NCBI GenBank assembly: GCA_016342645.1
Contig: JAEINX010000006.1
Coordinates: 1 to 62,901, forward strand
Source of the DNA: Bacteroidales bacterium
GTDB lineage: Bacteria > Bacteroidota > Bacteroidia > Bacteroidales > JAEINX01
Length of the DNA stretch: 62,901 bases
Reading direction: 5' to 3'
This document shows positions 9,015-56,680 of this stretch, piece by piece (the stretch's first letter is position 1; every line of letters starts with the position of its first letter). Below the pieces are notes generated by a model. The model had not been told where the DNA came from. It made no database searches and saw only the letters and a program-made list of their open reading frames with translations. The translations under genes and the position numbers were made by a program.

Positions 9015-9070
9015 TATTTCCCTTATTTCCCTTATTTCCCTTATTTCCCTTATTTCCCATGTTCCCCTTA
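9015..9070. repeat. 9-bp tandem repeat (TATTTCCCT) x ~6
   Basis: Read directly from the sequence. Confidence 0.9.
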
Positions 9071-9156
9071 CATACTCAAAAAGAAATTATCACTTTCAAT
9101 TTAATAGATCCGTAACAAATTTCTTATATTGCAAATAATTTTAAAATCATTATTCT

Positions 9157-11031
9157 ATGCAAATAACTGTAAAGCGAAAATCAAACCGATTACATCCTGA
9201 CGCATCCCGTGTTATCATAAGATATTGTATTCCAGAATCACCAAAAAGATTAATTCAAGAAATTATGGAATTTCCAGATAAAAAATGTGATATTTTATTA
9301 ACTCAAACTCTAAGGGAGTTCTCGAGTCGTCATAGGAATATTTCAAGAACCCTGAAAAATTATTTTGACAAATCAATAAACATTATTAATGAATTAAAAA
9401 TTGATCCAAATTCTATTTCCAATGAACGTCAACTTTTAATAGGATCATATTTTGCAGGAGAATATTCTATTGAGTCGGCGGCATTTTTCAATCCTTCAAT
9501 AGTTGAAGACCCCGATCAGACTAATCTTGGTCCTAATGAAAAGCGTATAATAGTAAGTTTCAGAGCAACAGGCGAAGGACATATTTCATCGGTTGTTTTT
9601 AGAGGAGGAATTATTGATAAGAAAAATAATTTAAGTTTTAATCCTCAAGGAATTTATCTTGATGAGCCTGAATTCATTAAAAAGCAAATTTATAATAAAG
9701 AGAAATTTATTAATAAGTTGAACGAAATGAATATCAAAAAGGATATTATTTCGGTGGTAATGAATCAATTGAATGATAATTTCACTTATAAAGAACTGAC
9801 AAAAACCATACAGAAGGTCTCCGCAGAAACAAAACTTTCTTATACAAAGAAAAAAGTGTTACAAGCAATTAACTGGCTTGCAAGCTCTCACTACGAAATT
9901 AGTTTTTCTCTTGATACGGCAATTTCCGAAAGGGTGATATTCCCAATAATTTCGGATGAAAGAAACGGAATTGAAGATGCACGTTTTGTAAAATTTACTT
10001 ATGATGACGGAAAAATTAAATATTATGCAACTTATACTGCCTATAACGGATATGCAATTTTACCTAAACTAATTGAAACCGAAGACTTTTATCATTTCAG
10101 AATAATGCCCTTACATGGAAAATATGCCCAAAACAAAGGCATGGCACTTTTCCCACGAAAAATCAACGGGAAATATGTAATGCTTTCAAGAATTGATGGT
10201 ATTAATAATTATATTATGTATTCGAATGATATTAATATTTGGGAAAATGCCAAGATAATTCAAAAACCGATGCAAGGATGGGAGTTAATTAAAATCGGGA
10301 ATTCAGGCTCCCCTATTGAAACCGAACACGGCTGGCTTGTTATTACTCACGGAGTTGGGAATATGAGAAAATATTGTATCAGCGCCATTCTCCTCGACCT
10401 TGAGGATCCTTCAAAAATTATTGGAAAATTAGATGAACCTTTAATTTCGCCAAATACAGAAGAAAGAGAAGGTTATGTACCTAATGTAGTTTATTCGTGT
10501 GGATCGATAATTCATAATAATGAGTTAATTATTCCTTATGCAATGTCGGATTACGCATCGACTTTTGCCAGCGTGCGTTTAAATGAATTGTTCAATGCTT
10601 TGATTCCTTCGAGATTGAGTTTTAAGAAAAAAGAAAAACCTTTGAATAAATTCAGAATTTTGATTGTTGAAGATGATTTAATTCAACAAAAAATATTTTA
10701 TAAGCTTCTTGTTCAAGAGGGCTACGAAGTAGAAGTTGCTGATAATGGAGCAGATGCGTTACTATATATTGGAAAGAAAAAATTCGATATAATTCTCTCA
10801 GATTTACTAATGCCTGACATGGATGGATTTGGCTTAATAAAATTCCTGAATTCAAAAAACATTAAAATTCCCGTAATTTTTATCACAGGAGAGGAAGACA
10901 AAGAATCTGAGTTAAAGGGCTTGCAACTTGGAGCAGTCGATTATCTTACTAAACCTGTCGATAAAGAAATATTATTAATCAAATTGGAAAAATTTTTAAT
11001 AAAAAATGGATTGTCATTTAATGGTCATTAA
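9157..11031 (+). CDS. GH130/DUF377-like glycosidase or phosphorylase fused to a C-terminal receiver domain
   Basis: AAFFNPS, GIEDARFV, NKGMALFP, EREGYVPNVVYSCG; receiver motifs IVEDD, DLLMPDMDG, ITG, KP. Confidence 0.85.
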   Translation: MQITVKRKSNRLHPDASRVIIRYCIPESPKRLIQEIMEFPDKKCDILLTQTLREFSSRHRNISRTLKNYFDKSINIINELKIDPNSISNERQLLIGSYFAGEYSIESAAFFNPSIVEDPDQTNLGPNEKRIIVSFRATGEGHISSVVFRGGIIDKKNNLSFNPQGIYLDEPEFIKKQIYNKEKFINKLNEMNIKKDIISVVMNQLNDNFTYKELTKTIQKVSAETKLSYTKKKVLQAINWLASSHYEISFSLDTAISERVIFPIISDERNGIEDARFVKFTYDDGKIKYYATYTAYNGYAILPKLIETEDFYHFRIMPLHGKYAQNKGMALFPRKINGKYVMLSRIDGINNYIMYSNDINIWENAKIIQKPMQGWELIKIGNSGSPIETEHGWLVITHGVGNMRKYCISAILLDLEDPSKIIGKLDEPLISPNTEEREGYVPNVVYSCGSIIHNNELIIPYAMSDYASTFASVRLNELFNALIPSRLSFKKKEKPLNKFRILIVEDDLIQQKIFYKLLVQEGYEVEVADNGADALLYIGKKKFDIILSDLLMPDMDGFGLIKFLNSKNIKIPVIFITGEEDKESELKGLQLGAVDYLTKPVDKEILLIKLEKFLIKNGLSFNGH

Positions 11032-11091
11032 GTGGTCATTCTATTGTCATCTAATAGTCATTAAGTGGTCATTAATTGGTCATTAATTGGT
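11011..11091. repeat. 11-bp tandem repeat (TGGTCATTAAN) x7 overlapping the stop codon
   Basis: Read directly from the sequence. Confidence 0.85.
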
Positions 11092-11138
11092 TCACCGGTT
11101 GATTCTGATGAAGTATAAAAGTATATAATGAATTTCGG

Positions 11139-11219
11139 TAGTTTCCATATTTCCACTATTTCCCTTATTTCCTTTATTTCCTTTATTTCTCCTATTTCCT
11201 TTATTTCCCTTACTTTCCC
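11139..11219. repeat. 9-bp tandem repeat (TATTTCCYY) x9
   Basis: Read directly; same unit as 9015-9070. Confidence 0.9.
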
Positions 11220-11315
11220 CATCCACAATAATACTTGTTCTTAATTTTTCGTGCATGTTAAACCTGATTAGTTGCAAATTTTTACTTATTTTGCCCGGTC
11301 ATAATATAATCAAAT

Positions 11316-12623
11316 ATGCTGTTAATTTTTTCTCCAAAGATAAGTAAACGTTTAAAATATATTTTTAAACTGATTTTTAAAGATATCATTGGAACTGAAT
11401 TTGAAATAACAAATAATTCAGAGAAATTTCAATTTTTTGAAGGAATAAAAATAAATTATTCAACAAAATCATTTAAAGATGAAATATTTTTTTATTCTTC
11501 AAATTTTTTATTCGAAATCGGTATTGTCGAGCAAGAATTAAAATTTATTGATTTTGAAGATACCAAAGCATTTTTCCCTAATAATGAAAAGAAATCAGCA
11601 TTAACTTTTGATCCATTTGCTGTTAGTTTTTACCTCGTAAGCCGCTATGAAGAATACCTGCCTTATGTTAGAGATAAATACAGCCGTTTTGAGGCCAAAG
11701 AAAGCATTGCGTTTAAAAATGGTTTCTTGCAAAAACCACTCGTCAATATTTATGCTCATAAAATTGCTCAAATTATTTCAAATAAATTTCCAGAATTTAA
11801 ACCAAAAACCCGAAAATTTTCTTTTTTCCCAACCATTGATATTGATGCTGCTTATTCATATAAATGTAAAGGCGTTTTTAGGAGTTTGGGAGGATATTAT
11901 AAATCAATAATTAAACTTGATTTTCAAGAAATATTAGAAAGAACAGAGGTTATTTTAGGGCTAAAAAAAGATCCTTTCGACTCTTATGATTTTCAATTTA
12001 AGATTCAAAAAAAATATGGACTAAAACCAATTTATTTCATCCTTTTTGCCGATTACGGCCTTAACGATAAAAATATTTCGGTTAATAATTTTAAGTTCCA
12101 AACTTTAGTCAAATCACTTGGTGATTATGCCGAGCTTGGAATTCACCCTTCATATGGTTCGAATTCGAATACTGAAAAACTGAAAAAAGAAGTAAAAAAA
12201 CTTTCTCAGATTCTCAAAAAAGAAATCACTAAAAGTCGTCAACATTTTCTTAAACTTAGCTTGCCAACAACTTATCGTAATCTTTTAAACCTTGATATTA
12301 CGGATGATTATACAATGGGTTATGCGTCCGAACCCGGTTTCAGGGCAAGTATTTGCGATACATTTTACTTTTATGATCTTGACCTTGAAACAGAAACAAA
12401 CCTGCGAATCCATCCATTCGCATTTATGGATGGAACTTTAAGGGATTATAAGCAACTTTCTGACAAAGAATCTTTAATAATTATTAAATCATTAATTGAA
12501 GAAATAAAAAAAGTTAATGGAACTTTTATAAGTATATGGCACAACGAATCATTAAGTAATAAAAAACGTTGGGAAGGATGGAGAAATGTTTATGAAGAAA
12601 TGATTAAAATTAGTAAGAATTGA
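11316..12623 (+). CDS. Polysaccharide deacetylase-family protein
   Basis: PTIDID, ELGIHPSY, SRQHFL, DYTMGY, WHNE NodB-like motifs. Confidence 0.8.
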   Translation: MLLIFSPKISKRLKYIFKLIFKDIIGTEFEITNNSEKFQFFEGIKINYSTKSFKDEIFFYSSNFLFEIGIVEQELKFIDFEDTKAFFPNNEKKSALTFDPFAVSFYLVSRYEEYLPYVRDKYSRFEAKESIAFKNGFLQKPLVNIYAHKIAQIISNKFPEFKPKTRKFSFFPTIDIDAAYSYKCKGVFRSLGGYYKSIIKLDFQEILERTEVILGLKKDPFDSYDFQFKIQKKYGLKPIYFILFADYGLNDKNISVNNFKFQTLVKSLGDYAELGIHPSYGSNSNTEKLKKEVKKLSQILKKEITKSRQHFLKLSLPTTYRNLLNLDITDDYTMGYASEPGFRASICDTFYFYDLDLETETNLRIHPFAFMDGTLRDYKQLSDKESLIIIKSLIEEIKKVNGTFISIWHNESLSNKKRWEGWRNVYEEMIKISKN

Positions 12624-12683
12624 GATTTAAGATTTTTGATTTGAAGTTTGGAAATGCTTAAAATAAAATGAAAAAATAAAATC

Positions 12684-13616
12684 ATGATTAAATATTTGAA
12701 GCATAAAGAAATTGATAAAAGAAAATGGGATGATTGTATCAGATGTTCCGTCAATGGAATTATTTATGCTTATTCGTGGTATTTGGATGTGGTTTGCCCT
12801 GATTGGGAGGCTCTTGTTGAAGGTGATTATGAGCGAATCTTCCCTCTGACATGGCGAAGAAAAAATAAAATATTTTACCTTTTTCAGCCTGTTTTTTCAC
12901 AGCAATTAGGAGTTTTCTCAAGGAGTTTTCTGTCTGAGGAAATTGTTGATGCGTTTTTGAATGCCATTCCTTCGAAATTCAAACTTATTGAAATAAACTT
13001 AAACACCCATAATAAAACAAATAACACTGAATTCAAATGTTTTCAGCGAGTTACTTATGAGCTTGACTTGATTGATTCGTATGAAAATATTTACACAAAA
13101 TATTCAACTAACACAAAACGAAATATTAAGAAAGCCATAAAATCTAAGATTACAATTTCTCAAAATGTCAGACCGGAGGAAATAATAAAAATTTTTAGGA
13201 AACATCGTGGAAAAGATTTTAATGATTTAAAAGACACAGATTATCAAATTTTGTCAAGGTTGATGTATTTATGTCTATTTAAATCATGCGGATATGCTTA
13301 TGGAGCATATACAGAACAAAATGATTTATGTGCCGGTGTTTTTTTCGTAAAAAGTAATAAGAAGGTAATTTTCCTGTTTTCGGGCGTAAATAAAACAGCA
13401 AGAGAAAACGGTGCCATGTCTTTATTGATTGATCGCTTTATTAAAAACAATTCTCAAACTGCTTTGACTCTCGATTTCGAAGGCTCAATGGATGCAAATT
13501 TAGCAAGGTTTTATAAAAGTTTTGGTTCAACAAAATGTAAGTATTTACAAATCAGAAAAAATTCATTGGTTTTTTTCATTAAAATAGGAATGAAACTTAT
13601 TAAAGCCCTAAAATAA
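12684..13616 (+). CDS. FemAB/GNAT-fold acyltransferase
   Basis: IDKRKWD, YAYSWYLD, QQLG, LDFEGS...LARFYKSFG. Confidence 0.75.
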   Translation: MIKYLKHKEIDKRKWDDCIRCSVNGIIYAYSWYLDVVCPDWEALVEGDYERIFPLTWRRKNKIFYLFQPVFSQQLGVFSRSFLSEEIVDAFLNAIPSKFKLIEINLNTHNKTNNTEFKCFQRVTYELDLIDSYENIYTKYSTNTKRNIKKAIKSKITISQNVRPEEIIKIFRKHRGKDFNDLKDTDYQILSRLMYLCLFKSCGYAYGAYTEQNDLCAGVFFVKSNKKVIFLFSGVNKTARENGAMSLLIDRFIKNNSQTALTLDFEGSMDANLARFYKSFGSTKCKYLQIRKNSLVFFIKIGMKLIKALK

Positions 13617-13671
13617 CAATGTTTTAATTTTTGTGACCTCCTAATAAATTTGCTAATTACTACAGACTTTG

Positions 13672-13679
13672 TATATTTG
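13672..13679 (+). promoter_or_regulatory. Bacteroidota -7 promoter box upstream of upp
   Basis: TATATTTG matches TAnnTTTG about 40 nt before the start codon. Confidence 0.55.
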
Positions 13680-13717
13680 CATTATATAGTTGTTACTGTT
13701 TTAATAAAATTAAAATA

Positions 13718-14368
13718 ATGTTAAAAGTTTTAGGAAAACAAAATTCGTTGCTAAATCAGTATATTTCTGAAATTCGTAATGTTAACATACAAAAAGACAG
13801 CATGAGATTCAGAGCAAACTTCCAACGAATAGGTGAAATTTTTGCCTACGAAATAAGTAAGACATTGGAATATAATGAAGAAAACATTACTACATCTCTC
13901 GGGCAAATTGAAGGTTTGGAATTAAAGCAAATACCTGTTTTGGCTACTATTATGCGGGCCGGACTTCCATTCCATCGTGGGATGTTAAATTATTTTGATC
14001 ATTCTGAAAATGCCTTTGTTTCTGTATTTCGTAAGCATCACAAAAGTCGAAAAGCAGAAACAAAAGTTGAGTCAATTTCAAGCCCCGATCTCAGCGATAA
14101 GGTTATGATTTTAGCTGATGCAATGCTTGCCTCCGGTATTTCAATGGTGCTGTCTTACAAAGAATTGATTACAAGAGGAAAACCTATTCATACACACTTA
14201 GCCGTAATTGTAGCAAGCGAACAAGGAATTAATTATATTCAAAGAAAGCTTCCTGATGATAATATCACGATTTGGGTTGGAGAAATTGATGATGAATTAA
14301 CTGCTCAGGGATATATTGTTCCGGGCCTTGGTGATGCCGGTGATCTGGCTTTTGGTAGTAAAAAATAA
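13718..14368 (+). CDS. upp: Uracil phosphoribosyltransferase
   Basis: MRAGL, PRPP-binding DAMLASG, YIVPGLGDAGD. Confidence 0.9.
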   Translation: MLKVLGKQNSLLNQYISEIRNVNIQKDSMRFRANFQRIGEIFAYEISKTLEYNEENITTSLGQIEGLELKQIPVLATIMRAGLPFHRGMLNYFDHSENAFVSVFRKHHKSRKAETKVESISSPDLSDKVMILADAMLASGISMVLSYKELITRGKPIHTHLAVIVASEQGINYIQRKLPDDNITIWVGEIDDELTAQGYIVPGLGDAGDLAFGSKK

Positions 14369-14378
14369 ATAAATTATT

Positions 14379-15620: not shown

Positions 15621-15764
15621 ATTTGATAAATAAATCCTTCCCGAGTAAAAATCCATCTCCTAAGAAGGTTAATTTTTTGTTAAATTTTAGAATTAACGGT
15701 CTAATTAAAAGAAAACAGCAATATCCTGATTATTCTTGACGGAATTTTGAATGTTTTTGTGTAA

Positions 15765-16268: not shown

Positions 16269-16291
16269 AAAAAATGTTTTAAAATTTTATT

Positions 16292-16954: not shown

Positions 16955-17067
16955 AAATTTTTAAAATTTACTTCCTGCAAAAATTAAAAATATTTGGAAC
17001 AGGAACATTCAGTCCGCTAAATTAACTTTTTTTACTATAAATCCACTAAATTCAAACATATGTCCGT

Positions 17068-25042: not shown

Positions 25043-25078
25043 AACCTGTGTTTTAAGATGTTTGTATTTTTTTCTGAA

Positions 25079-25285
25079 AATGATTGAATGATAGAATGCT
25101 TAAATGCGTAAATAAAATAAATGCATGTGTTATTTTCCATTCTCTCATTCTCTCATTAAATCATTTTCTCATTCTCTCATTAAATCATTCTCTCATTAAA
25201 TCATTCTCTCATTCTCTCATTAAATCATTCTCTCATTCTCTCATTAAATCATTCTCTCATTCTCTCATTCTCTCATTCTCTCATT
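25079..25285. repeat. 8-bp CATT-NNNN tandem array (18 units, 25138-25281) with an inverted AATG-NNNN arm (25079-25110)
   Basis: Units cattctct / cattaaat / cattttct; inverted arm aatgattg aatgatag aatgctta aatgcgta. Confidence 0.9.
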
Positions 25286-28068: not shown

Positions 28069-28548
28069 ATGGAAGATCAAATTGAAAACCAAGTTGAAAA
28101 AGCCTATACCTTTTTTAGATTTGAAGATTTGAGGATTTATCACAAATCTATCGAATATATTGAAATGGTTTACGATAATACAGAATTATTTCCTGATAAT
28201 GAAGCCGATGGGTTAAAGTCAAAATTAATTGAGACATCCCAGTCAATTACTCTCAAAATTGCCGAAGGTTCATCAAGGAATAAAACTCAATTTATTCATT
28301 TTTTAAAGTTAGCTAAAAGCTCTGTTCGCGAATGTCTTATTTATACCACTTTAGCAAAAAATCGACAATATATTTCTCAAATTGCCGAAGAAGAATCAAG
28401 GAATATTCTAATTGAGATGACCAAGATGATAGGTGCATTAATAAGTTCTTTACAAAAAAGCTTAACGAGAGAGCCTAACCATAATAATTATCCCAATAAC
28501 TCTTCGAATAATAATCATTCTAAAAATTCAGATTATAACGAATATTAG
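28069..28548 (+). CDS. Four-helix-bundle protein (23S rRNA intervening-sequence protein / bAvd-like family) with an Asn-rich tail
   Basis: FRFEDLRIY, LFPDNEADGL, SITLKIAEGSSR, FLKLAKSSVREC. Confidence 0.85.
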   Translation: MEDQIENQVEKAYTFFRFEDLRIYHKSIEYIEMVYDNTELFPDNEADGLKSKLIETSQSITLKIAEGSSRNKTQFIHFLKLAKSSVRECLIYTTLAKNRQYISQIAEEESRNILIEMTKMIGALISSLQKSLTREPNHNNYPNNSSNNNHSKNSDYNEY

Positions 28549-28716: not shown

Positions 28717-29964
28717 ATGGCAATACTAAAAGCATTTAAGGGACTACGGCCACCAAAAAAAATATCTAAAGACTTAGCATCAAGGCCATATGACGTACTT
28801 AATTCGGAAGAAGCACGTGAAGAAGCAAAAGGTAATGAATACTCTTTGTTGCATATTATTAAACCGGAAATTGACTTACCTGAGGATGTAGATATTCACT
28901 CTCAAGCAGTTTATGATAAAGCAAAAGAAAACTTTGAAAAATTCAAAAACAAAGGATTTCTTGTTCAGGATGAAAATGAGAACTTATACATTTACGCTCA
29001 AACCATGAATGGGAAAACTCAATATGGTATTGTTGGTTGTGCTGCTGTTGATGACTATTTAAATGAAATAATCAAAAAACATGAGCTGACACGTAAAGAC
29101 AAGGAAGAAGATAGAATGAAACATGTTCGCATTACAAACGCAAATATGGAACCTGTTTTCTTTACCTATCCTGCTGTTAAAGAAATTGATAAAATCGTTG
29201 AAGAATTTGTAAAAAATAATGACCCAATTTATGACTTTACTGCTGATGATGGATTTGGCCATCATTTTTGGGTTATAAAGGATAAAGAAATTATTAAAAA
29301 AATTATTGATCATTTTTCAAAAGTTCCTTACACCTATGTTGCAGACGGCCATCATCGTACTGCGGCTGCAGCTTTGGTTGGAAACGAAAAACGAAAAAAC
29401 AATCCAAATCACACAGGAAATGAAGAATATAATTTCTTTTTGGCCGTTCATTTTCCCGATAATCAGCTTACTATAATTGACTACAATAGAGTTGTTACTG
29501 ATTTAAACAATCTTTCAAGCGAGGAATTCACTCAAAAACTTGATAAAGTATTTGAAATAAAAGAAATGGGTACTGAAATTTATAAACCCAATCAGCTTCA
29601 TAACTTCAGTATGTACCTTGACGGAAAATGGTATTCAATGACTGCAAAAGAAGGGACTTATAATGATGATGATCCGATTGGAATACTTGATGTTACAATT
29701 CTTTCAAAATTAATTCTCGACAATATTCTTGGAATTAAAGACCTTAGAACCGACAAACGTGTTGATTTCGTTGGAGGTATCAGGGGTTTGGGAGAATTAA
29801 AACGAAGAGTTGATAAGGGTGAAATGAAAGTTGCTTTTGCTTTATTTCCTGTTTCGATGAAACAATTAATTGATATTGCAGACACAGGGAACATAATGCC
29901 ACCAAAAACAACCTGGTTCGAGCCTAAATTAAGAAGTGGATTGGTTGTTCACAGCCTTGATTAA
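28717..29964 (+). CDS. DUF1015-family protein
   Basis: SRPYDV, IKKHELTR, VADGHHR, MPPKTTWFEPKLRSGL. Confidence 0.9.
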   Translation: MAILKAFKGLRPPKKISKDLASRPYDVLNSEEAREEAKGNEYSLLHIIKPEIDLPEDVDIHSQAVYDKAKENFEKFKNKGFLVQDENENLYIYAQTMNGKTQYGIVGCAAVDDYLNEIIKKHELTRKDKEEDRMKHVRITNANMEPVFFTYPAVKEIDKIVEEFVKNNDPIYDFTADDGFGHHFWVIKDKEIIKKIIDHFSKVPYTYVADGHHRTAAAALVGNEKRKNNPNHTGNEEYNFFLAVHFPDNQLTIIDYNRVVTDLNNLSSEEFTQKLDKVFEIKEMGTEIYKPNQLHNFSMYLDGKWYSMTAKEGTYNDDDPIGILDVTILSKLILDNILGIKDLRTDKRVDFVGGIRGLGELKRRVDKGEMKVAFALFPVSMKQLIDIADTGNIMPPKTTWFEPKLRSGLVVHSLD

Positions 29965-30015
29965 TTAATGAATAGCTTAAATTGTTAAATTATTATATCA
30001 CAACAATATAACAAT

Positions 30016-30948
30016 TTAACTCAATATTTTCTGAAATAACTCTGGTAGTCTTTTAATAAGTACTAATTCTCTCCATTTTTTTCCTGCTTCTATCGCGGGA
30101 ATACCAAAATAGGTTTTGCCTCCTTCAAGAGATTTTCCGACACCTGATGTTGCCAATATTACAGTTCCTTTACCAATTACAAGGTCCTTATCAATACTAA
30201 CTCTCCCCCAAATAATAACATCATCTTCAATTTTTGTAACACCCGCAATTGCTGAATGTGCACCTATCAAACAATTTTTACCAATTACGGTGTCATGGCC
30301 TACCTGAATATGATTGTCTAACTTTGTACCCATACCAATTATAGTATCGCCTGTAACTCCCTTATCGATTGAGGATAAACTTCCAATTTCTACATTATCG
30401 GCAATTACTACCCTGCCGCAGGATTCAAATTTCATATAAGCATCGTTCCTTTTCTGAAAATAAAAAGCATCAGCACCGATAACAGAGTTGGAATGAATAA
30501 TAACATTATCACCGATAATACAGTGATCGTAAATGCTTACGTTTGCATGGATAAGGCAGTTGTTTCCGATTTTTACATTATTACCGACAAAAACGCCAGG
30601 CTGAATTATTGTCCCCTCTCCTATTTCAGCCTTTTTGCTGATAGGATGCTCACATTTTTCAAATTTTCTGAATTTCTTTATTAAAGTTAAGAAGTCAGAA
30701 AACGGATCTTTTGAAATTAATAATGCTTTGCCTTCGGGGCATTCAACTTTCTTATTAATTAATATTATTGTAGCTTTTGAATTTAAAGCTTTATTATAAT
30801 ATTTTGGATGATCAACAAAAGTAATATCTCCGGACTGAACCTTGTGTATTTCATTCAGGCCTGAAACAATGAAATCAGGATCACCAATAAATTCGCAATT
30901 AATAATTTTTGCAACTTCCTTTAATTTTAAAAAAGAATTAAATTCCAT
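30016..30948 (-). CDS. LpxD-like hexapeptide N-acyltransferase (second paralog)
   Basis: GLNEIH, TFVDHPKY, hexapeptide repeats, KLDNHIQVGHD. Confidence 0.85.
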   Translation of the reverse strand: MEFNSFLKLKEVAKIINCEFIGDPDFIVSGLNEIHKVQSGDITFVDHPKYYNKALNSKATIILINKKVECPEGKALLISKDPFSDFLTLIKKFRKFEKCEHPISKKAEIGEGTIIQPGVFVGNNVKIGNNCLIHANVSIYDHCIIGDNVIIHSNSVIGADAFYFQKRNDAYMKFESCGRVVIADNVEIGSLSSIDKGVTGDTIIGMGTKLDNHIQVGHDTVIGKNCLIGAHSAIAGVTKIEDDVIIWGRVSIDKDLVIGKGTVILATSGVGKSLEGGKTYFGIPAIEAGKKWRELVLIKRLPELFQKILS

Positions 30949-42491: not shown

Positions 42492-42583
42492 GAAATTGGA
42501 AATTAGGAAGAAGGACAAATTTCCAATTTCTGCGTATATTTGCATAATCCCTGCCCGACTTTGTCATTCAGGCGGCTGCAGGA
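42492..42583 (+). promoter_or_regulatory. 13-bp inverted repeat, -7 promoter box and GC-rich leader hairpin upstream of tsaE
   Basis: gaaattggaaatt (42492-42504) / aatttccaatttc (42518-42530); TATATTTG at 42535-42542; cctgc...gcagg stem. Confidence 0.5.
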
Positions 42584-44307: not shown

Positions 44308-44684
44308 TGTGTAAAAGCAAGTCAACGGTCGTGAATATTAATTAAGTAGGGGTTCGAAAAGTTTTTCCGATTTCAAGTTTTTGGCTTAAGGTTTTAATGT
44401 GGCTCATTGTTATTTCCTAAATGGATTTGACAGCAACTTGTTGGTTTTTTCGCGTTGATGAAGCATTCACTGAAAAGCAATAACTTACACTGTATTAATC
44501 AGTAAGCTATTTAAATAAAGACACAAATTTCACCAAATTACACTAATTTCATATTACTAAAACACATGAAGCTTCATTGTTTAATTAACTCATTTGGTCA
44601 AAAATAATTAGAGTAATTGCAGATTTAAAGTATTACAATAGTATATTTTTTGAATTTTTTCGGCTCAATTTCTTTAGATGCGAA

Positions 44685-46971: not shown

Positions 46972-47033
46972 TTCCCGCAGATTACGCAGATTATCACTGA
47001 AAATTCTACGTACACATACGGAATCTGCGGGAA
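46972..47033. repeat. CGCAGATT-type repeat forming a 12-bp inverted repeat between the kinase and regulator genes
   Basis: ttcccgcagattacgcagatt ... aatctgcgggaa. Confidence 0.75.
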
Positions 47034-48077: not shown

Positions 48078-48144
48078 TTCACTTTCTTATTACAAACATA
48101 ATATAAAATATTCAGAGAAGGTATTAGTTTTTTAGCTGTCATCC

Positions 48145-48304
48145 TATTCAATCATTCAACCATTCAACCATTCTCTCCTTATATCATTATAGCATTCTAT
48201 CATTATAGCATTCTCTAATTATACCATTCTCTCATTATATCATTATAGCATTACATCATTATAGCATTCAATCATTCTATCATTCTATCATTCACTCCTT
48301 CTCT
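48145..48304. repeat. 8-bp CATT-NNNN tandem array (20 variable units)
   Basis: Units such as cattcaac, cattctct, cattatag, cattctat, cattacat in strict 8-bp register. Confidence 0.9.
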
Positions 48305-48914
48305 CTATCAACTGCTTTTTCCTCTTAAGTTTAGTAGGTTCAATAAAAGCATTTTCATCATCGGCATATTTCTTTACGAAAGCCTGTAATTCTTCGGTTG
48401 AAGCAGTAAGTAAAATTTGTTCATCATTATCAAAAGGATATTTATTATCATATGGATACTTTAAAACCTCATGGGGGATTCTTATCTTATGTTGTTTAAA
48501 CAAATTTTCTATCCAGCCATAATCGAATAATGAAATCTCAGCTTCGTTTTCATTAACTGTTATCTTTCCAAAACTGTGAACATAAATTTCATGAGTTTGA
48601 AAGAAATCGTTTACATTGCAATTTACATCATCGCTATTTGGAAAAAAATCAATAAACATGTCATCGCCAAGTTTTACTAAATGAATATAAAAGTCTGACA
48701 ATATGCTATCTTCAACATAAGCAAGATTATAAGAATCATCCTCAAGCTTAGTAAAAGTCCATGTATTATTATTACCATCTTCTTCCCAATCGCCAAGCAA
48801 ATTGGAATCAAACACACAATCATCCTTTGTATATAAAGGATGTAGGGAAGGGATACAGCCTCCTATCATAAGTAATAAACCTATCACAAATGCAATTCTC
48901 TTTTTTGATTTCAT
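48288..48914 (-). CDS. Hypothetical lipoprotein
   Basis: Lipobox IGGC followed by IPSLHPLY; LLTASTEELQAFV. Confidence 0.75.
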   Translation of the reverse strand: MKSKKRIAFVIGLLLMIGGCIPSLHPLYTKDDCVFDSNLLGDWEEDGNNNTWTFTKLEDDSYNLAYVEDSILSDFYIHLVKLGDDMFIDFFPNSDDVNCNVNDFFQTHEIYVHSFGKITVNENEAEISLFDYGWIENLFKQHKIRIPHEVLKYPYDNKYPFDNDEQILLTASTEELQAFVKKYADDENAFIEPTKLKRKKQLIERRSE

Positions 48915-49040
48915 AATTTTTATTTTTAATTAATAATCGGCAAAATAACTATTGAAACCATGAAAATTCAATTTTATTCGATGAACGATATAAAAGGCAG
49001 GATGAAATATTAATTTTTAAACTTATCCTTGATTGAAATA

Positions 49041-49070
49041 AATCTGCGTTATTCTGCGAAATCTGCGGGA
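49041..49070. repeat. AATCTGCG repeat x3 (reverse complement of the 46972 repeat)
   Basis: aatctgcgttattctgcgaaatctgcggga. Confidence 0.7.
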
Positions 49071-49104
49071 GAAAAAAGTTATCTAAACAGTTCTCCAGAT
49101 TATG

Positions 49105-49578: not shown

Positions 49579-49742
49579 AGTTTTTTGTTTTGTTATAAAA
49601 TATCATTCACAATTGAAACTATTCAAAACTACAAAAAATTTTATAATAAGAAAATGGACAAAGAACTAAAAGATATGAAATTGTTAAGTGTTATTACTAC
49701 TTTTTTTGTCTAACGCAGTTTTTTGTAATTTCCAGAGCCCGA

Positions 49743-50594: not shown

Positions 50595-50611
50595 TAATGT
50601 TTTATTTGGTT

Positions 50612-51526
50612 TTATATTTTCTCAACCCCTTTATTACTTGTTTTTGTTTTGTAAACCTTAACAAAATGTGGATTTTCGGCAAAAGCTTTTTCCATAATTC
50701 CGGCGATTTCATCAATATTATTTTCATTGCAAAGTGCAAAAACCGATGAACCGCCACCACTAACGTTGCAGCCGTAAGCTCCAACTTTTAACACATTTTC
50801 TTTAACAAAATTATATTCGGGAATGGCAGCCGACCTAACAGGCTCTGCAATATAATCAACACTTACAGCTTTGCCAAACTCAACAATATCTTTGGTATGA
50901 ATTGCATGAATTACTCGCGAACATCTTGCCATTTGTTCTTTCAATTTTTCCTGGCCTATTTCATAAGTTATAAATCCGCGGGTTGTTCTTTGGCTTTTAC
51001 GAATAGCAGCCAAAGCAATTGGAAAGTCGGGCAGATCAAGTTTAAGAACATCGATAGGATTATATGATTTTACTAAAACAAAACCTCCGAGCAAAGCTGC
51101 CGCCACATTATCGGCATGAGGTGATCCACCTGAGGCAACTTCTCCCATTCGAGCAAGGTCAATTATTTCATTATCTGAAAGTTTTAATCCTAATAATTCA
51201 TTTAAACCAAAAATACATCCCGCTGCCGAGGCTCCGGTTGTTCCCATTCCACCTCCCGATTTCATATTTTTTATTATACGAATGTGGATTCCTTGTTTGA
51301 TATTGAATTTTTTTACTAAAGCCAATGCGGCTAATCCGGCCGTATTATCATTAATATCGGTCGGTATATTTTGGGTGTCGTTGATAATTTCAATTGTAAT
51401 CTTATTTGAATCGTTTAATTCAATTTCTATTTCGTCGTAAGGCATTTGCAGAGCCATTGCAAAAATATCGTATCCCGGTCCAACATTTGCACTGCTTGCC
51501 GGCGCTCTCAGTTTTATTTTATTCAT
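50612..51526 (-). CDS. thrB: Homoserine kinase-like GHMP kinase
   Basis: PASSANVGPGYD, HADNVAAALLGG, VSGGGSS; P-loop is divergent (MKSGGGMGTTGAS). Confidence 0.7.
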   Translation of the reverse strand: MNKIKLRAPASSANVGPGYDIFAMALQMPYDEIEIELNDSNKITIEIINDTQNIPTDINDNTAGLAALALVKKFNIKQGIHIRIIKNMKSGGGMGTTGASAAGCIFGLNELLGLKLSDNEIIDLARMGEVASGGSPHADNVAAALLGGFVLVKSYNPIDVLKLDLPDFPIALAAIRKSQRTTRGFITYEIGQEKLKEQMARCSRVIHAIHTKDIVEFGKAVSVDYIAEPVRSAAIPEYNFVKENVLKVGAYGCNVSGGGSSVFALCNENNIDEIAGIMEKAFAENPHFVKVYKTKTSNKGVEKI

Positions 51527-51539
51527 TTTTTATTGGTTT

Positions 51540-51797
51540 TTAATCATAATGAAATCTACACTTTATTATCCGAATTTCTTCATCTTTCACTTGATAAATT
51601 AGTCTATGCTCTTCATCAATTCTTAGGGACCAAAAACCTTGATACTTATGTTTCAAAGGTTCTGGTTTTCCAATTCCGGAAAATGGGTTCCGTGAAATAT
51701 CCCTGATTAACTCATTTATCTTTTTCAAATTCTTTTTATTGACCTTTTGCCAATATAGGTAATCTTCCCATGATTCATCAACGAATACATATTTCAT
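51540..51797 (-). CDS. yoeB: Txe/YoeB toxin
   Basis: WEDYLYWQ, GIGKPEPLKH, WSLRIDEEHRL, CRFHY. Confidence 0.93.
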   Translation of the reverse strand: MKYVFVDESWEDYLYWQKVNKKNLKKINELIRDISRNPFSGIGKPEPLKHKYQGFWSLRIDEEHRLIYQVKDEEIRIIKCRFHYD

Positions 51798-52048
51798 TCT
51801 TCAATGAGTTCTTTTTGAAATGATAAATTCTTCTTAAATTTATTAATTGCCGAATCTAATCTTTTTTCATTTATCCGGGATGAGAGTTCGTGTTGTGTCG
51901 AACATAATGCGTTATATTCATCTAATGAAATTACTACAACACCTTTGTCTTTTCCTCGATTAATTACTAAAGTTTCAAAATTATCAATAACGCTATCAAG
52001 GTATTTCTTAATGTCTTTTCTAAAATCCGAAATTGTTGTTGTAATCAT
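51794..52048 (-). CDS. yefM: Phd/YefM antitoxin
   Basis: ISDFRKDIKKYLD, VVISLDEYN; overlaps the toxin start (ATGA). Confidence 0.9.
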   Translation of the reverse strand: MITTTISDFRKDIKKYLDSVIDNFETLVINRGKDKGVVVISLDEYNALCSTQHELSSRINEKRLDSAINKFKKNLSFQKELIEE

Positions 52049-52062
52049 GTTTATTTTGTTTT

Positions 52063-52082
52063 TTGTACAAAATTATGTACAA
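52063..52082. promoter_or_regulatory. yefM-yoeB operator: two TGTACA palindromes 12 bp apart
   Basis: tgtaca at 52064-52069 and 52076-52081, matching the architecture of the E. coli yefM-yoeB operator. Confidence 0.75.
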
Positions 52083-52181
52083 ATTTTGGATTTTCCAAAA
52101 TTTTTTATCAATAATTTACGAAACAATACATCCAATTAATAAGTTTCCAGCTAATCGAAAGGATACTTCTCTGATTTACAT

Positions 52182-53066
52182 TTAAATCAATCCATTATCC
52201 TCCATAATAGATTTAAGGATTTTTGTTTTTGGTTCGCTAAGAGGAGTTAAGGGAAGTCTTACCCCTCCGGCTGCTTGACCTGAAAGATTCAAAGCCATTT
52301 TTGCCGCCATCGGATTGGTTTCAAAGCGTAATGCTTCAAAAAGTCGATAGTATTTATGATGAATTTCTTTTGCTTTCGTAATTTCTCCTTCAAGAGAATA
52401 ATCAATCATTTGTTTCATTATTTCGGGGACAATATTTCCGGCAACCGTAAAAGTTCCACTTCCGCCCGAAGCAACAAACGGAAAAGCGGTAGTGTCTTTT
52501 CCCGTAAAAACTTCAAAATCGTCATCTTTGGTCAAATAAACAACCTTAGCCAAATGATCTAATTGTTTGTTTCCGTCTTTAACCCCTATAATGTTAGGAT
52601 GTTTTGCAAGCTTTGCAGTAATTTCGGGAGTTAGCTCAACACATGTTCTGCCTTTTGCATTATGTAAAATAATTGGTAATTCGGAATAATCGGCAAGTTT
52701 TTCGTAAAACTCAATCAAACCGTCAGGTTTTGGGAGAACAAAAAACGGTGCAAAAACCGAAACATAATCAGCCCCGCAATCAGCATATTGTCTTACTCTT
52801 TCTCTCGCTTTCCATAAGCTCATCGCACATGTATCAGGTACAATTTTAGCTTTACCTTTTGCATTTTCAACAACTATTTTTAAAACTCTTATTACTTCAT
52901 CGTCTGTCATCAAAGTATTTTCGCCTGTAACACCCAAAGGTGCAATTCCATGAATACCTGATTCTACTTGTTTCAATACATTTTGCTTTAAACCTTCTTC
53001 ATCAAGAGTTTGATCTTCGTTGAAAGGAGTTATTAACAATGTGTATGCTCCCTTTTGCATTTTCAT
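52182..53066 (-). CDS. DapA/NAL-family class I aldolase (atypical active site)
   Basis: LITPF, LGVTGE, Schiff-base Lys in IGVKD, ETNP, VRLPLTPL. Confidence 0.8.
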   Translation of the reverse strand: MKMQKGAYTLLITPFNEDQTLDEEGLKQNVLKQVESGIHGIAPLGVTGENTLMTDDEVIRVLKIVVENAKGKAKIVPDTCAMSLWKARERVRQYADCGADYVSVFAPFFVLPKPDGLIEFYEKLADYSELPIILHNAKGRTCVELTPEITAKLAKHPNIIGVKDGNKQLDHLAKVVYLTKDDDFEVFTGKDTTAFPFVASGGSGTFTVAGNIVPEIMKQMIDYSLEGEITKAKEIHHKYYRLFEALRFETNPMAAKMALNLSGQAAGGVRLPLTPLSEPKTKILKSIMEDNGLI

Positions 53067-53243
53067 AATTATATATTTTTACTATTAAACTTTATTTAAA
53101 ATCATTATAAATTGCTGCAAAGGTCGAGATAAAATATATTACTTTCAAGGGAAAAAATAATATTTTTAAAATAAGCTTTATAAATAAAGGTAATAAGGTG
53201 ATTGTTTTAATAAAAAAATATTGCCAAAAAATAATATTTAGTT

Positions 53244-53301
53244 AAATTTCTATACATTTTTAAAGTTGAACTTTAAAAATGTATAAAAATTTGTATATTT
53301 G
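53244..53301 (+). promoter_or_regulatory. 49-bp near-perfect palindrome abutting the -7 box of the AAA ATPase gene
   Basis: tatacatttttaaagtt-g-aactttaaaaatgtata (53251-53285), extendable by aaattt; TATATTTG at 53294-53301. Confidence 0.7.
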
Positions 53302-53305
53302 CACC

Positions 53306-54466
53306 ATGATAATTAAAAGAACAATACAAGATGAGTTAATTAGTTTAATGAAGGAATACCCTGTTGTTACACTTACAGGACCAAGACAATCAGGCAAAAC
53401 CACCCTGGCAAAAATCACTTATCCGAACTTTATTTATTGTAACCTCGAAAATCCTGAGATTCGTAAACTGGCAGAGACAGACGCAAATGCTTTTTTTAAT
53501 ACTTTCAGATTCCCAGTAATTATTGACGAAATACAAAGAGTGCCACAGTTGTTATCATATATTCAAACAATTGTAGATCAAGAAAATGAAAACGGCATGT
53601 TTTTAATTACCGCTAGTCATCAATCATCGTTAGATGAAGCAATTTCCCAATCGCTTGCAGGAAGAACAGCTCTTTTACAACTTTTACCCTTTTCAATTGT
53701 GGAACTTAAATCATTTAACCTGAATTTAAACAGGGATGCACAAATTTGTAAAGGTTTTTTACCACGTATTTACGAAAAAAAACAAAACTCTTTCAAAGCA
53801 TATAGGAATTATTTTCAAACCTACATTGAACGTGACTTGCGACAAATGATAAAATTGAAGGACTTAAGTATCTTTGATGACTTTATCAGACTATTAGCAG
53901 GAAGAGTTGGTCAGATTTTAAATATTCATTCACTGTCAAATAATTTAGGTGTTTCTTCTCCAACTATTACTCAATGGTTGTCAATATTAGAAGCGTCATT
54001 TATTATTTTTAGGTTAAAACCCTATTTTGAAAATTTCGGTAAGCGGATTATTAAATCTTCAAAAATTTATTTTACGGATGTTGGGCTGGCCTCATACCTT
54101 TTGAGTATTGAAAATCAAGAACAGGTTCATCGTGACCCCCTTCTCGGTGGGTTATTCGAAAATATGGTTGTTTTGGAAGCAGTTAAAGCAAGATTAAACC
54201 AGGGTCTTGATCCTAACCTTTTCTTCTTTCGTGATAATAACGGCAATGAAGTTGACCTTATCTTCAAAACACAAAATTCTCTTATCCCAATAGAAATTAA
54301 AGCTGCTATGACTTTTAATGAAAAGCTTCTTAAAGGGATAAATTATTTTCACAATATCTGTGATAAAGCTAAAGATGGCTATTTAATTTATTCCGGGGAA
54401 CTAAGTTTTAAAAGCCGTTATTATGAAACAATTCATTACTCAAAAACACACGAAATTTTTTCATAA
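53306..54466 (+). CDS. AAA_14 / DUF4143 ATPase
   Basis: GPRQSGKTT, IDEIQ, ISQSLAGR, KIYFTDVGL, FFRD..GNEVD, PIEIK; ATG 53306 preferred because the promoter box lies inside the longer ORF. Confidence 0.88.
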   Translation: MIIKRTIQDELISLMKEYPVVTLTGPRQSGKTTLAKITYPNFIYCNLENPEIRKLAETDANAFFNTFRFPVIIDEIQRVPQLLSYIQTIVDQENENGMFLITASHQSSLDEAISQSLAGRTALLQLLPFSIVELKSFNLNLNRDAQICKGFLPRIYEKKQNSFKAYRNYFQTYIERDLRQMIKLKDLSIFDDFIRLLAGRVGQILNIHSLSNNLGVSSPTITQWLSILEASFIIFRLKPYFENFGKRIIKSSKIYFTDVGLASYLLSIENQEQVHRDPLLGGLFENMVVLEAVKARLNQGLDPNLFFFRDNNGNEVDLIFKTQNSLIPIEIKAAMTFNEKLLKGINYFHNICDKAKDGYLIYSGELSFKSRYYETIHYSKTHEIFS

Positions 54467-54485
54467 TTTAAGCCACTATTAGTCA

Positions 54486-56621
54486 ATGGATATTAAAAGA
54501 ATATCAATCTATATTTGCTCGGGATGCGAGATCGGGAATTCCATCGATATTGATACACTTAAAGATATTTCTGAAAAAGAATTTCAGATCACATACTTCA
54601 AACAACATCCAAATCTATGTTCAAAAAACGGTATAGAGCTGATAAAAAATGACCTGAATGAAACATCGGCAAATGCCATTATTATTGCCGCTTGTTCACC
54701 TCGACAAAACACAAAAACATTTTCATTTGATGATGTTATTGTCGAACGCTTAAATTTCAGAGAACAAGTTGTTTGGCCACATGAAGCTAATGATGAAGAT
54801 ACCCAAATGCTTGCAGAAGATATTCTTAGAATGGGAATTGCAAAAGTCAACTCAATTATTAAACCTATTCCTTTCATAATTAATGATTTTTGTGCTGATG
54901 TTTTGGTAGTTGGCGGTGGAATCACAGGAATTACTTCGGCTATTGAAGCAGCCAAAACAGGCTATAAAGTTTTTCTTATTGAAAAAGAAAATGAACTGGG
55001 AGGCTATTCGGCAAAGCTACATAAACAAATTCCTTTTCGCTATCCTTATATAAAAATTGAAGAGCCTCTTGTTTTTGAAAAGATAAAAGAAATTGAAAAT
55101 CATCCGAAAATTAAAGTTTTCAAGTCCACAGAAATTAAAGAAATTGGCGGACAACCGGGTGAGTTTTCAGTAAAACTGAATACTAATGGAAATAAGAATT
55201 CTTTAAAAGCCGGAGCAATCGTAATGGCCACAGGATGGAAACTCTACGATGCTTCAAAACTTTCGGTATTTGGGTACGGAAATTTCAATAATGTCGTAAC
55301 AAATCTTGAAATGGAAAGCCTCGCAAAAAAAGGTAAAATATTAAAACCTTCGGATGGAGAGGAAGTTAAAAGTGCTTTATTTATTCAGTGTGCAGGTTCG
55401 CGTGATCAGGAACATTTGCCTTATTGTTCAAATTATTGTTGTGGAACAGCCCTAAAACAAATTAAATATCTGCGTGAAGCAAATATTGATTCAAATGCTT
55501 TTATTGTTTATAAAGACATCAGAACCCAAGGACATTACGAAAACTTTTACAAAGAAATTCAAAACGATAACAGAGTTTTCTTTACAAAAGGTGAGGTGAA
55601 ATCAATTGCCGAAAACGAAGAAAAATTATTAATCACAATTGATAATTCACTTCTCAATGAAGAAATTCAATTGGAAGTTGATCTTGTTGTACTTGCACTC
55701 GGAATGACTCCTGCTAATTCCGCTGAATTGAATCTAAATTACAGAATGGGAAAAGGTTTGCCGTCTTTAAAATATGATTTCCCCGATTCTCATTTCATTT
55801 GTTTTCCTTATGAAACGCGGCGAACAGGAATTTATGCTGCCGGTTCTTTGCGCTCACCGATGGATATTACGGCAAGCATTGAGGATGCCTGCGGAGCCAC
55901 GATGAAAGCTATTCAATGTATTGAAGCAACAAAACGCGGCGAATCTGTCCACCCTCGTTCCGGCGATCGTTCCTATCCTGAACTTTATCTTGAAAGATGT
56001 ACCGATTGCAAACGCTGTACTGAAGAATGTCCTTTTGGAGCTTACGATGAAACCGAAAAAGGAACTCCCCTTCCAAATCCATCACGTTGCAGGCGTTGCG
56101 GCATTTGTTTGGGTGCATGCCCCGAGCGAATAATTAATTTTAGTGATTTTTCTATCAATAGTGTTTCATCAATGATAAAAGCAGTTAATATTCCTGACGA
56201 GTTTGAAGAAAAACCCAGAATACTTGTTTTTGTTTGCGAAAATGATGCTTATCCCGCTTTCGATATGGCAGGATTCAAACGCTTAAATTATAGCTCATTC
56301 GTTAGAATAATTCCTGTAAGATGTATTGGCTCGGTTAATAAAGTGTGGATTTCTGATGCACTTTCGCAAGGCTTCGACGGAATTTTAATGATTGGTTGCA
56401 AACCCGGCGATGATTACCAATGTCATTTTATTCATGGAAGCGAACTTAATGAAACACGTGGAGAGAACATCAGCGAAACCCTCGAAAAAATGATGCTTGA
56501 ACCCGAACGCCTTAAAACCGAATTCCTTGAAATAAATGAGTATAACAAAATCCCGGAAATTATAAACAATTATGTTGAAACTATCGAAGATATTGGACCG
56601 AATCCTTTTAAGGAAATGTAA
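54486..56621 (+). CDS. qmoB: QmoB-like protein (HdrA-like FAD/FeS module plus C-terminal MvhD domain)
   Basis: VGGGITG, IQCAGSRD..CSNYCC, two CxxCxxCxxxCP motifs, FVCENDAY, VRCIGS, GCKPGDDYQCH. Confidence 0.85.
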   Translation: MDIKRISIYICSGCEIGNSIDIDTLKDISEKEFQITYFKQHPNLCSKNGIELIKNDLNETSANAIIIAACSPRQNTKTFSFDDVIVERLNFREQVVWPHEANDEDTQMLAEDILRMGIAKVNSIIKPIPFIINDFCADVLVVGGGITGITSAIEAAKTGYKVFLIEKENELGGYSAKLHKQIPFRYPYIKIEEPLVFEKIKEIENHPKIKVFKSTEIKEIGGQPGEFSVKLNTNGNKNSLKAGAIVMATGWKLYDASKLSVFGYGNFNNVVTNLEMESLAKKGKILKPSDGEEVKSALFIQCAGSRDQEHLPYCSNYCCGTALKQIKYLREANIDSNAFIVYKDIRTQGHYENFYKEIQNDNRVFFTKGEVKSIAENEEKLLITIDNSLLNEEIQLEVDLVVLALGMTPANSAELNLNYRMGKGLPSLKYDFPDSHFICFPYETRRTGIYAAGSLRSPMDITASIEDACGATMKAIQCIEATKRGESVHPRSGDRSYPELYLERCTDCKRCTEECPFGAYDETEKGTPLPNPSRCRRCGICLGACPERIINFSDFSINSVSSMIKAVNIPDEFEEKPRILVFVCENDAYPAFDMAGFKRLNYSSFVRIIPVRCIGSVNKVWISDALSQGFDGILMIGCKPGDDYQCHFIHGSELNETRGENISETLEKMMLEPERLKTEFLEINEYNKIPEIINNYVETIEDIGPNPFKEM

Positions 56622-56622
56622 A

Positions 56623-56680
56623 GGATATTGGATATTCGATACAAGATACTGGATGCTGGATGCTGGATGCTGGATGCTGG
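56623..56680. repeat. 7-bp tandem repeat (GGATGCT / GGATATT) x8 between qmoB and qmoC
   Basis: Read directly from the sequence. Confidence 0.9.

Follow-up and report, generated by a model that had tools for sequence, protein, structure and literature searches.

Short tandem arrays at the gene ends of the window

The window analysed here is a 62,901-nt stretch, contig JAEINX010000006.1 (C143 in our numbering), of a Bacteroidales draft genome of 4.17 Mb (assembly GCA_016342645.1, hereafter G000; 198 contigs, 32% G+C, 93.5% complete). Its genes, Bacteroidota-like in that they include an LpxC-FabZ fusion and domains of type IX secretion (Por_Secre_tail, PorP/SprF, CHU_C), are punctuated by intergenic tandem arrays of short units, and its ser operon holds a gene for a four-helix-bundle protein of family PF05635, the 23S rRNA intervening-sequence (IVS) protein. 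An earlier reading made from the letters alone (the sequence-only reading) had proposed that such arrays are scars or empty cassettes of a system that moves small genes. We propose, with a confidence evenly divided between acceptance and doubt, that the window arrays are part of one genome-wide population of ~200 loci in ~14 unit families, made of the same material as the inverted arms of IVS-like PF05635 cassettes. G000 was compared with two congeners (G001 and G002), with G026, from another family, and with more distant members of the order. Genes were called as the longest ATG open reading frames (ORFs) with greedy overlap removal, a crude procedure without a gene finder. The features of the window are as follows (TRF, Tandem Repeats Finder).

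9015-9070, no strand assigned: solo 9-mer array, TATTTCCCT in 6.2 copies on the + strand, in a divergent spacer; TRF score 91; GGAAATA-type family, 36 loci
11013-11091, + strand: 11-mer array, GGTCATTAAnT in 7.2 copies, partly self-complementary; TRF score 81, fold z -2.8
11148-11220, + strand: solo 9-mer array, TATTTCCTT in 7.8 copies, pyrimidine-rich in sense, stacked behind the 11-mer array; TRF score 84
12614-12635, + strand: weak 7-mer array, TAAGATT in 3.1 copies, overlapping the stop codon of the DUF7033 gene
25076-25120, - strand: short distal arm, ~4 AATGAnnn units read on the + strand, of an empty hairpin between DUF5989 and carbamoyltransferase genes; TRF row 25079-25113
25138-25285, - strand: long stop-proximal arm of the same hairpin, 8-mers AATGAGAG/AATGATTT in 18.5 copies in sense; TRF score 184, fold z -2.8
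28069-28548, + strand: four-helix-bundle gene (PF05635, E 5e-20; TIGR02436) between serA-like and DUF1015 genes, without repeat arms; flanks z -0.5
29977-30019, no strand assigned: small hairpin of AACAATAT-family 8-mers (26 loci) in a convergent spacer; 18-nt arms, 89% complementary, 7-nt loop; z -4.0
42492-42530, + strand: hairpin of GAAATTG/GAAATTA 7-mers between the PglZ-receiver gene and tsaE; 13-nt arms, 100% complementary; z -3.1; no TRF row
44522-44551, no strand assigned: weak 9-mer repeat, CACAAATTT in 3.2 copies; TRF score 37, not shown above chance; only 11-nt inverted matches
46972-47033, - strand: CGCAGATT-type hairpin between histidine-kinase and LytTR-regulator genes; 15-nt arms, 93% complementary; z -5.5
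48146-48297, - strand: solo 8-mer array, GATAGAAT/CTATAATG in 18.5 copies in sense; TRF score 121; unstructured (z -0.25), no partner arm
49039-49067, + strand: three AATCTGCG-type units, one of nine intergenic CGCAGATT clusters in the genome; inverted partner not found
56623-56680, + strand: solo 7-mer array, two GGATATT then five GATACTG/GATGCTG units, starting one base past the qmoB-like stop; unstructured, no partner arm

TRF returned a row at 11 of the 12 window sites named in the sequence-only reading, and six are strong by this measure (9015-9070, 11013-11091, 11148-11220, 25079-25285, 48146-48297 and 56623-56680), where ~0.08 arrays (period <=12, score >=50) would be expected per window by proportion. 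The remaining named sites, with 2-3.5 copies and scores of 30-37, are not significant by TRF alone; three TRF-weak or TRF-negative sites are significant hairpins by folding (46972-47033, 29977-30019 and 42492-42530). The arrays of differing period described earlier are thus real at most of their sites. The reverse-complement arms across a short spacer, also described there, were found at these three hairpins and at 25076-25285, where the 45-nt distal arm is 71-76% complementary to the long arm.

Direct inspection likewise confirmed that arrays start at or overlap stop codons, at the DUF5989 gene, 11013, 48146 and 56623. The DUF5989 stop (25286-25284, minus strand) is overlapped by the first unit of the long arm, and the stop and last codons of the upstream ORF 48288-48914 lie within the 48146-48297 array. 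The 11013-11091 array provides the final codons and stop (11029-11031) of a gene at 9157-11031, in which a GH130 (mannoside phosphorylase-like) domain is fused to a response-regulator receiver. Since the alignment with its G001 and G002 orthologues ends at residue 614 of 624, the last 10 residues and the stop are array-derived; the G001 spacer behind this gene is without the array. The 9015-9070 array, which alone among the window arrays occupies a divergent promoter region, folds on neither strand and has no partner arm, and the 11148-11220 array, with a minimum free energy of 0 kcal/mol, has none either. The qmoB-proximal array is split by TRF into two rows, 56645-56680 (7-mer, 5.1 copies, score 65) and 56623-56641; by eye, its units resemble the CAGGATA/AAGATAC family, the clustering itself having placed the array in no family.

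A genome-wide population of few unit families

The genome-wide TRF check upheld the arrays as a real excess. In G000, 565 merged arrays reached a score >=50, and 153 of them have a period <=12, against 5, 6 and 6 per 4.17 Mb in simulated genomes (local order-2 Markov, n = 3, same score); at score >=80, 44 real arrays stand against 0 simulated. Intergenic DNA holds 121 of the 153, in a genome of which the crude ORFs cover 83%. At a looser threshold, 206 arrays are non-coding, and 174 of these fall into 14 unit families, which were taken from community detection because single linkage merged 191 arrays into one cluster. Window arrays occur in both of the two largest families, the AATGAnnn octamers with 39 loci and the GGAAATA-type nonamers with 36, and arms of PF05635 genes are found in 8 of the 14 families.

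Heptamer arrays of cyanobacteria are known as short tandemly repeated repetitive (STRR) sequences. The G000 arrays are head-to-tail units of 5-11 nt in numbers beyond composition (153 against 5-6), with whole-unit differences between relatives, and they share with STRR and long simple-sequence repeats the unit length, tandem structure, non-coding location of units not divisible by three, patchy distribution over lineages and slippage. They could be such repeats, born in place by independent slippage in permissive non-coding DNA, tolerated at the same spots and without any tie to cassettes. Arrays of 5-11-nt units are indeed recorded from scattered bacterial lineages as long simple-sequence repeats (Mrazek and co-workers 2007, as summarised in PMC4679880). 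We nevertheless consider independent slippage quite unlikely, and the use of only 14 unit families by 174 of 206 arrays is a first point against it. The descriptions of simple-sequence and STRR repeats, so far as seen, treat arrays as independent loci, whereas the arrays here come in few dispersed families and display polarity, stop contact, inverted pairing and a guest gene.

The same family structure, few families with many loci each and PF05635 arms among them, would also be expected if the arrays were cis-acting platforms bound in trans, either by a cognate four-helix-bundle pentamer for each family or by a protein with general affinity for single-stranded RNA, like the one suggested for the heptamer TAACTGA. 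Each family would then form a small post-transcriptional regulon. Translational regulation by heptamer repeats has been argued before (MacGregor 2015, PMC4679880). We regard such platforms as unlikely, and the array-neighbour genes are without a common function.

Across the order, AATGAnnn arrays of four units occur in 10 of 41 genomes (122 pattern matches in G000, 67 in G017, 24 in G002 and 16 in G001), a pattern that covers one unit only and is no proxy for arrays generally, and PF05635 occurs in 34 of the 41.

Period-21 arrays are also common (112 against 17-20 simulated), some with 9-13 near-identical copies, as at C2 27519-27756, C37 3396-3681 and C174 26551-26745. Arrays of period 21-22 number 137, of which the crude ORF calls place 74 in intergenic DNA, and some may encode seven-residue peptide repeats. 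The third example belongs to a stack of four different arrays within 550 nt (C174 26366-26910), consisting of AATG (11 copies), CATTCTAT (11.5 copies), the 21-mer (9 copies) and GAACAAGGAACATC (10 copies); the first two arrays form an empty hairpin, and a 68-aa ORF of no convincing family lies in the 21-mer array. The CGCAGATT motif, intergenic in 34 of its 69 occurrences, forms hairpins in which two units stand 9 nt apart and a complementary unit follows ~36 nt further, a two-plus-one layout found at 3 of 9 clusters (window 46972-47033, C72 1566-1618 and C174 15185-15238).

Arrays are enriched at the upstream stop and mostly purine-rich in sense there

Among arrays between same-strand gene pairs, 23 of 53 lie <=10 nt from the upstream stop, against 6.8 expected under uniform placement, and 0 of 20,000 simulations reached 23. 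Placement at gene ends is therefore not random, as the sequence-only reading had supposed. Only 7 of the 53 lie <=10 nt from the downstream start, which is the chance level; this preference for the upstream stop over the downstream start counts against platforms bound in trans. Arrays near stops are also polar, 20 of the 23 being purine-rich on the sense strand, and arrays in convergent spacers have the same polarity relative to the nearer gene. Spurious small ORFs flip the orientation of some rows in the placement and partner-arm tables. Sense-strand polarity would suit binding to RNA in trans, and it argues against independent slippage.

Two known classes of repeat were rejected on placement. 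Phase-variation repeats do not fit arrays that lie behind upstream stops and have metabolic and housekeeping genes as neighbours, and clustered regularly interspaced short palindromic repeats (CRISPR) do not fit arrays that have no spacers and stand behind stop codons.

PF05635 cassettes and their arms

G000 has 15 matches to PF05635, counted as 14 genes, one of them split and one with an in-frame TAG. An array lies <=150 nt from 9 of the 14 and from 288 of 3333 other ORFs (odds ratio 19, p 4e-7), and flanking arrays on both sides are seen at 4 of the 14 genes and at 14 of the 3333 ORFs. This association, with the same unit families forming PF05635 arms, is difficult to reconcile with arrays that arose by slippage independently of any cassette. 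The sequence-only reading had named both four-helix-bundle and GxxExxY genes as companions of such arrays; the first were confirmed as such, and GxxExxY (TIGR04256) has no match in the 93.5%-complete G000. Other ORFs between array pairs encode helix-turn-helix proteins or a TadA-like deaminase, or are without family.

Four G000 genes, on C176, C188, C122 and C178, stand between inverted arms. Read directly, the cassettes on C188 and C176 run from the host stop through a purine-rich array, a leader of 25-50 nt, the ORF and a complementary array to the leader and start of the next gene. Taking four genomes together, the flanks pair at z < -3 relative to shuffled sequence in 17 of 35 PF05635 genes, and in 15 of these 17 (hand count), the upstream flank exceeds the downstream one in purine content. 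The 14 G000 genes are spread over 13 contigs at unrelated junctions, and they, like all window arrays, lie beside or between protein-coding ORFs; the window has no rRNA gene.

Two armless genes, on C163 and in the ser operon of the window, are conserved in place in all four genomes. The latter (28069-28548), which the sequence-only reading had correctly recognised, encodes 159 aa, longer than usual, and is found at the corresponding position in G001, G002 and G026. It has the look of a copy that settled long ago. It is the sole PF05635 gene of the window, and none of the window arrays holds one.

Avd-type relatives of the PF05635 family bind nucleic acid, which would suit platforms bound in trans. 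A link to reverse transcriptase, as in Avd-like, diversity-generating retroelement (DGR)-type or other retro-mobility, was considered and rejected, the two RVT_1 matches lying on C7 and C58, neither of which has a PF05635 gene. Integron gene cassettes were likewise rejected on the scatter of the genes over 13 contigs, with no search aimed at an integrase.

Orthologous junctions in related genomes

We compared 23 array-bearing junctions of G000 with those of its relatives and mapped the neighbours of 20 PF05635 genes from G001, G002 and G026 back to G000, leaving out loci L058-L060. Copy number differs by whole units between the three congeneric species: the array at C187 1485 has 10.3, 4.1 and 2.9 copies, and that at C180 21565 has 6.5, 3.1 and about 3. 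Copy number varies between species in the arms of the C188 and C177 cassettes as well. At the DUF5989-carbamoyltransferase junction, which the sequence-only reading had singled out as a place where a filled allele might occur, G002 has the same hairpin at 3.5 copies instead of 18.5, and G001 has an N run. Such whole-unit differences at one junction are what slippage would produce.

Whole arrays are also present or absent. Both relatives have a short clean spacer where G000 alone has an array or hairpin at C180 18997, C180 19981 and window 8876-9156. The first of these spacers measures 279 nt in G000 against a clean 47 and 38 nt in the relatives, a difference that independent slippage explains poorly; the third, which holds the 9015-9070 array, is 108 nt long in G001 and 149 nt in G002. 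Elsewhere, unrelated units replace each other at one junction. At C189 28862, G000 has GGAAATAA, G001 has AAACAAG, and G002 has AATCAGT and AAGAAAC, in spite of flanking DNA that is 80-90% identical, which again argues against slippage in place. Units are also swapped at C189 25705 and in the window at 48078-48287, where G002 has AAGAAAC/AAACCCG in place of the 48146-48297 array, and at 11032-11315, where the 11148-11220 array is missing in G001 and gives way to a different small hairpin in G002. At the DUF7033 stop, where G000 has the weak TAAGATT array, G001 has ATTTTAG in 5.6 copies (L024 5275-5324). The kinase-regulator junction, also put forward in the sequence-only reading for comparison, has a different hairpin in G002 (GAAATTA/AATTTCC). 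The hairpin at C187 18905, by contrast with these swaps, persists at its junction in each of the three congeners, as trans-binding platforms would lead one to expect. Because junctions swap units and siblings often lack the array, conserved regulation is nonetheless hard to reconcile with the comparison as a whole.

Filled alleles were found at junctions where G000 has none. Between qmoB and qmoC, where G000 has the solo heptamer array, the stop-to-start spacer of G026 is filled by a PF05635 gene (E 2e-19) with inverted arms; in G002, the contig breaks there inside a different heptamer array, and G001 has an N run, which, like that at the DUF5989 junction, may be a scaffold gap. Two other junctions display decay. 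At C187 2152-2430, G002 has both arms and a PF05635 remnant (E 3.8e-6, small search), and G000 has the arms with ~85 nt between them. At C27 11999-12271, both arms and ~30 codons of a PF05635 gene persist in G000 (E 0.044 genome-wide), and the G002 copy has an in-frame TGA. Arrays thus do enclose small genes at orthologous sites, as the sequence-only reading had predicted, in alleles that are filled at qmoB-qmoC and decaying or empty at C187 and C27. The remnant search used a profile of 35 PF05635 proteins against six-frame G000, with one row (L023) wrongly cut to 17 residues.

Cassettes also differ by clean presence and absence. At L044, G002 has a further copy of the C177-type gene, with 91-92% identity and flanked by the same GAACAAG arms; the junction in question is a clean 43-nt spacer in G000. 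The C116 junction holds one PF05635 gene in each of the three congeners, less than 45% identical to each other and with different flanks or arms. At the C116-type junction of G002 (L042, C31 ~29300-29900), the flanks are a direct duplication of ~55 nt of the downstream gene's leader and not inverted arms. At L040 of G002, a PF05635 gene has a copy of one hairpin on each side, and G000 keeps a single copy of this hairpin; recombination between two such copies could leave an empty hairpin.

Assembled contigs from three sequencing runs of a relative ~95% identical to G000 end at arrays. An RNA-library contig of the same relative crosses the junction of the 12614-12635 array, which is not proof of a single transcript.

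Two further observations concern the window at large. At 3199-3422 it has one member (92% identity) of a dispersed repeat that is ~200-225 nt long and contains several internal palindromes; G000 has at least eight near-full copies, including one at C189 ~270-493 beside a AATGATGG array; G001 and G002 have copies at 91-93% identity. The copy beside the C189 array has no Rfam match at E 0.01 or better. At 51540-52048, a YoeB/YefM-type toxin-antitoxin pair lies between GHMP-kinase and DHDPS-family genes.

Discussion

Taken together, placement and polarity, the shared unit families, whole-unit copy changes and the clean presence or absence of cassettes are directly seen, as are the decay of genes between lasting arms and the occupation of one junction by different cassettes or arrays in sibling species. 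Most G000 loci are gene-less; a few are empty two-armed hairpins, and most are single purine-rich arms that abut or contain a stop. These data are best read as one IVS-like element family in several states, namely orphan arrays, empty hairpins and gene-bearing cassettes, with slippage driving copy number and with frequent turnover at junctions.

The closest known system is the Coxiella burnetii IVS, which is regarded as a selfish element (PMC4990558). There, a PF05635-type (S23p) ORF lies in the loop of a stem formed by terminal inverted repeats, two to three strain-variable tandem heptamers precede the ORF, RNase III cuts at the first repeat, and the ORF is prone to decay (PMC4990558). The cassettes described here are alike in the gene, in the stem-forming ends of part of them, in variable tandem heptamers upstream and in decay. 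They differ in lying between protein-coding genes behind stops instead of in helix 45 of 23S rRNA, and no window array and none of the 14 PF05635 genes of G000 has the rRNA location, helix 25 or 45, of 23S rRNA IVSs in general. Their arms are long arrays of up to ~18-29 units, and most loci are gene-less, the gene having been lost or never present, and many are one-armed. Terminal inverted repeats as in IVSs occur at 17 of 35 PF05635 genes and at four window sites, and not at 40 of 45 stop-hugging arrays. Our literature search found no paper tying PF05635 genes to tandem-repeat arms outside rRNA.

The second relevant precedent is the set of intergenic direct repeats, TAACTGA and other heptamers, described in Beggiatoaceae, Cyanobacteria and five Bacteroidetes (MacGregor 2015, PMC4679880). 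Those repeats are alike in being intergenic and short in unit, in occurring in some Bacteroidetes as long arrays with other heptamers among them, in being absent from close relatives with the same neighbourhood, in differing by whole units between strains and in breaking contigs (PMC4679880). By contrast, most BOGUAY repeats stand just upstream of start codons, whereas the arrays here stand at the upstream stop, and a single heptamer there compares with ~14 unit families of 7-12 nt here (PMC4679880). In the parts of that paper that were consulted, no tie to four-helix-bundle genes or inverted arms was found.

The states could be connected as follows. Cassettes, or arms alone, would be inserted or copied just behind stop codons, where they would do least harm, and slippage would then lengthen and shorten the arms. 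Loss of the gene and of one arm would leave orphan arrays, which may last only in the purine-rich sense orientation, possibly because C-rich unstructured RNA invites Rho-dependent polarity. In a transcript, paired arms would form a long stem like that of the 23S rRNA intervening sequence and a candidate target of RNase III, a role that they could have by likeness to the Coxiella IVS only.

Several findings weigh against this reading. Of 45 stop-hugging arrays away from PF05635 genes, a complementary partner was seen for only 5 at z < -3 and for 8 at z < -2, and the solo window arrays at 9015, 11148, 48146 and 56623 are unstructured. The six-frame search of G000 yielded only one extra PF05635 remnant with E < 0.1, that at C27; a second candidate, at C63 (E 3.2), is placed there by position alone. 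Stop-hugging by itself is no proof of targeting, since any insertion process combined with selection in tight operons predicts it, and shared unit families could reflect motif selection instead of descent. The non-repeat flanks of the window arrays match only themselves in the genome, so no larger shared element surrounds them, and a larger mobile element was rejected on this ground. Elements of the miniature inverted-repeat transposable element (MITE) or repetitive extragenic palindromic (REP) type were rejected on the same non-recurring flanks, with the exception that the CGCAGATT hairpins, which have a fixed layout, may be REP-like. Unique flanks and the predominance of one-armed arrays are also what independent slippage would predict. 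Finally, at five junctions that are filled only in a relative, G000 has a clean short spacer at four (C72, C152, C161 and C182) and a single hairpin at one (C102), from which it follows that gain or loss of a cassette usually leaves no array. No target-site duplications were recognisable in global alignments of five filled and empty alleles, which align poorly in the A/T-rich spacers. The proposal that the arrays are scars or empty cassettes is thus upheld in part: the unit families common to arrays and PF05635 arms and the filled and empty junctions support it, and one-armed arrays, the rarity of remnants and the clean G000 spacers at junctions filled in relatives do not.

The four clean spacers also bear on the reverse order of events, in which arrays and hairpins precede cassettes and serve, at hot-spot junctions, as landing pads for the insertion of small genes. 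Three unrelated cassettes at the C116 junction in three congeners, three different arrays at C189 28862, the L040 gene between two hairpin copies of which G000 keeps one, and the stacking of different arrays behind one stop (window 11013 and 11148; C174 26366-26910) would all suit a landing pad. Against this stand the four of five filled junctions at which G000 has no pad, and the arms themselves, as insertion splitting one direct array would give direct arms and the observed arms are inverted; moreover, three genomes are too few to root the direction of events. We judge landing pads very unlikely. The view that arrays, hairpins and cassettes are states of one IVS-like family can be taken further, to an active process, without a recognisable enzyme, that writes arrays and whole four-helix-bundle cassettes behind the stops of transcribed genes. 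New arrays would stack stop-proximally while older ones decay downstream, orphan arrays would be footprints of the exchange of cassettes at junctions, and this one source would also account for the arrays of heptamers and octamers in Bacteroidota, cyanobacteria and sulfur bacteria. This extension is tentative, and we think it improbable as it stands.

Tandem arrays of 7-11-nt units have been on record from the intergenic DNA of bacteria for decades, with no consensus on where they come from or what they do. G000 ties such short arrays quantitatively to the four-helix-bundle protein of rRNA intervening sequences, through few unit families, a rule of position and polarity, and a specific guest gene. 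Because sibling species display junctions in filled, decaying, empty and swapped states, what was an oddity becomes testable. The arrays also matter for annotation, since they supply stop codons and C-terminal tails, as in the gene ending at 11031, and break assemblies.

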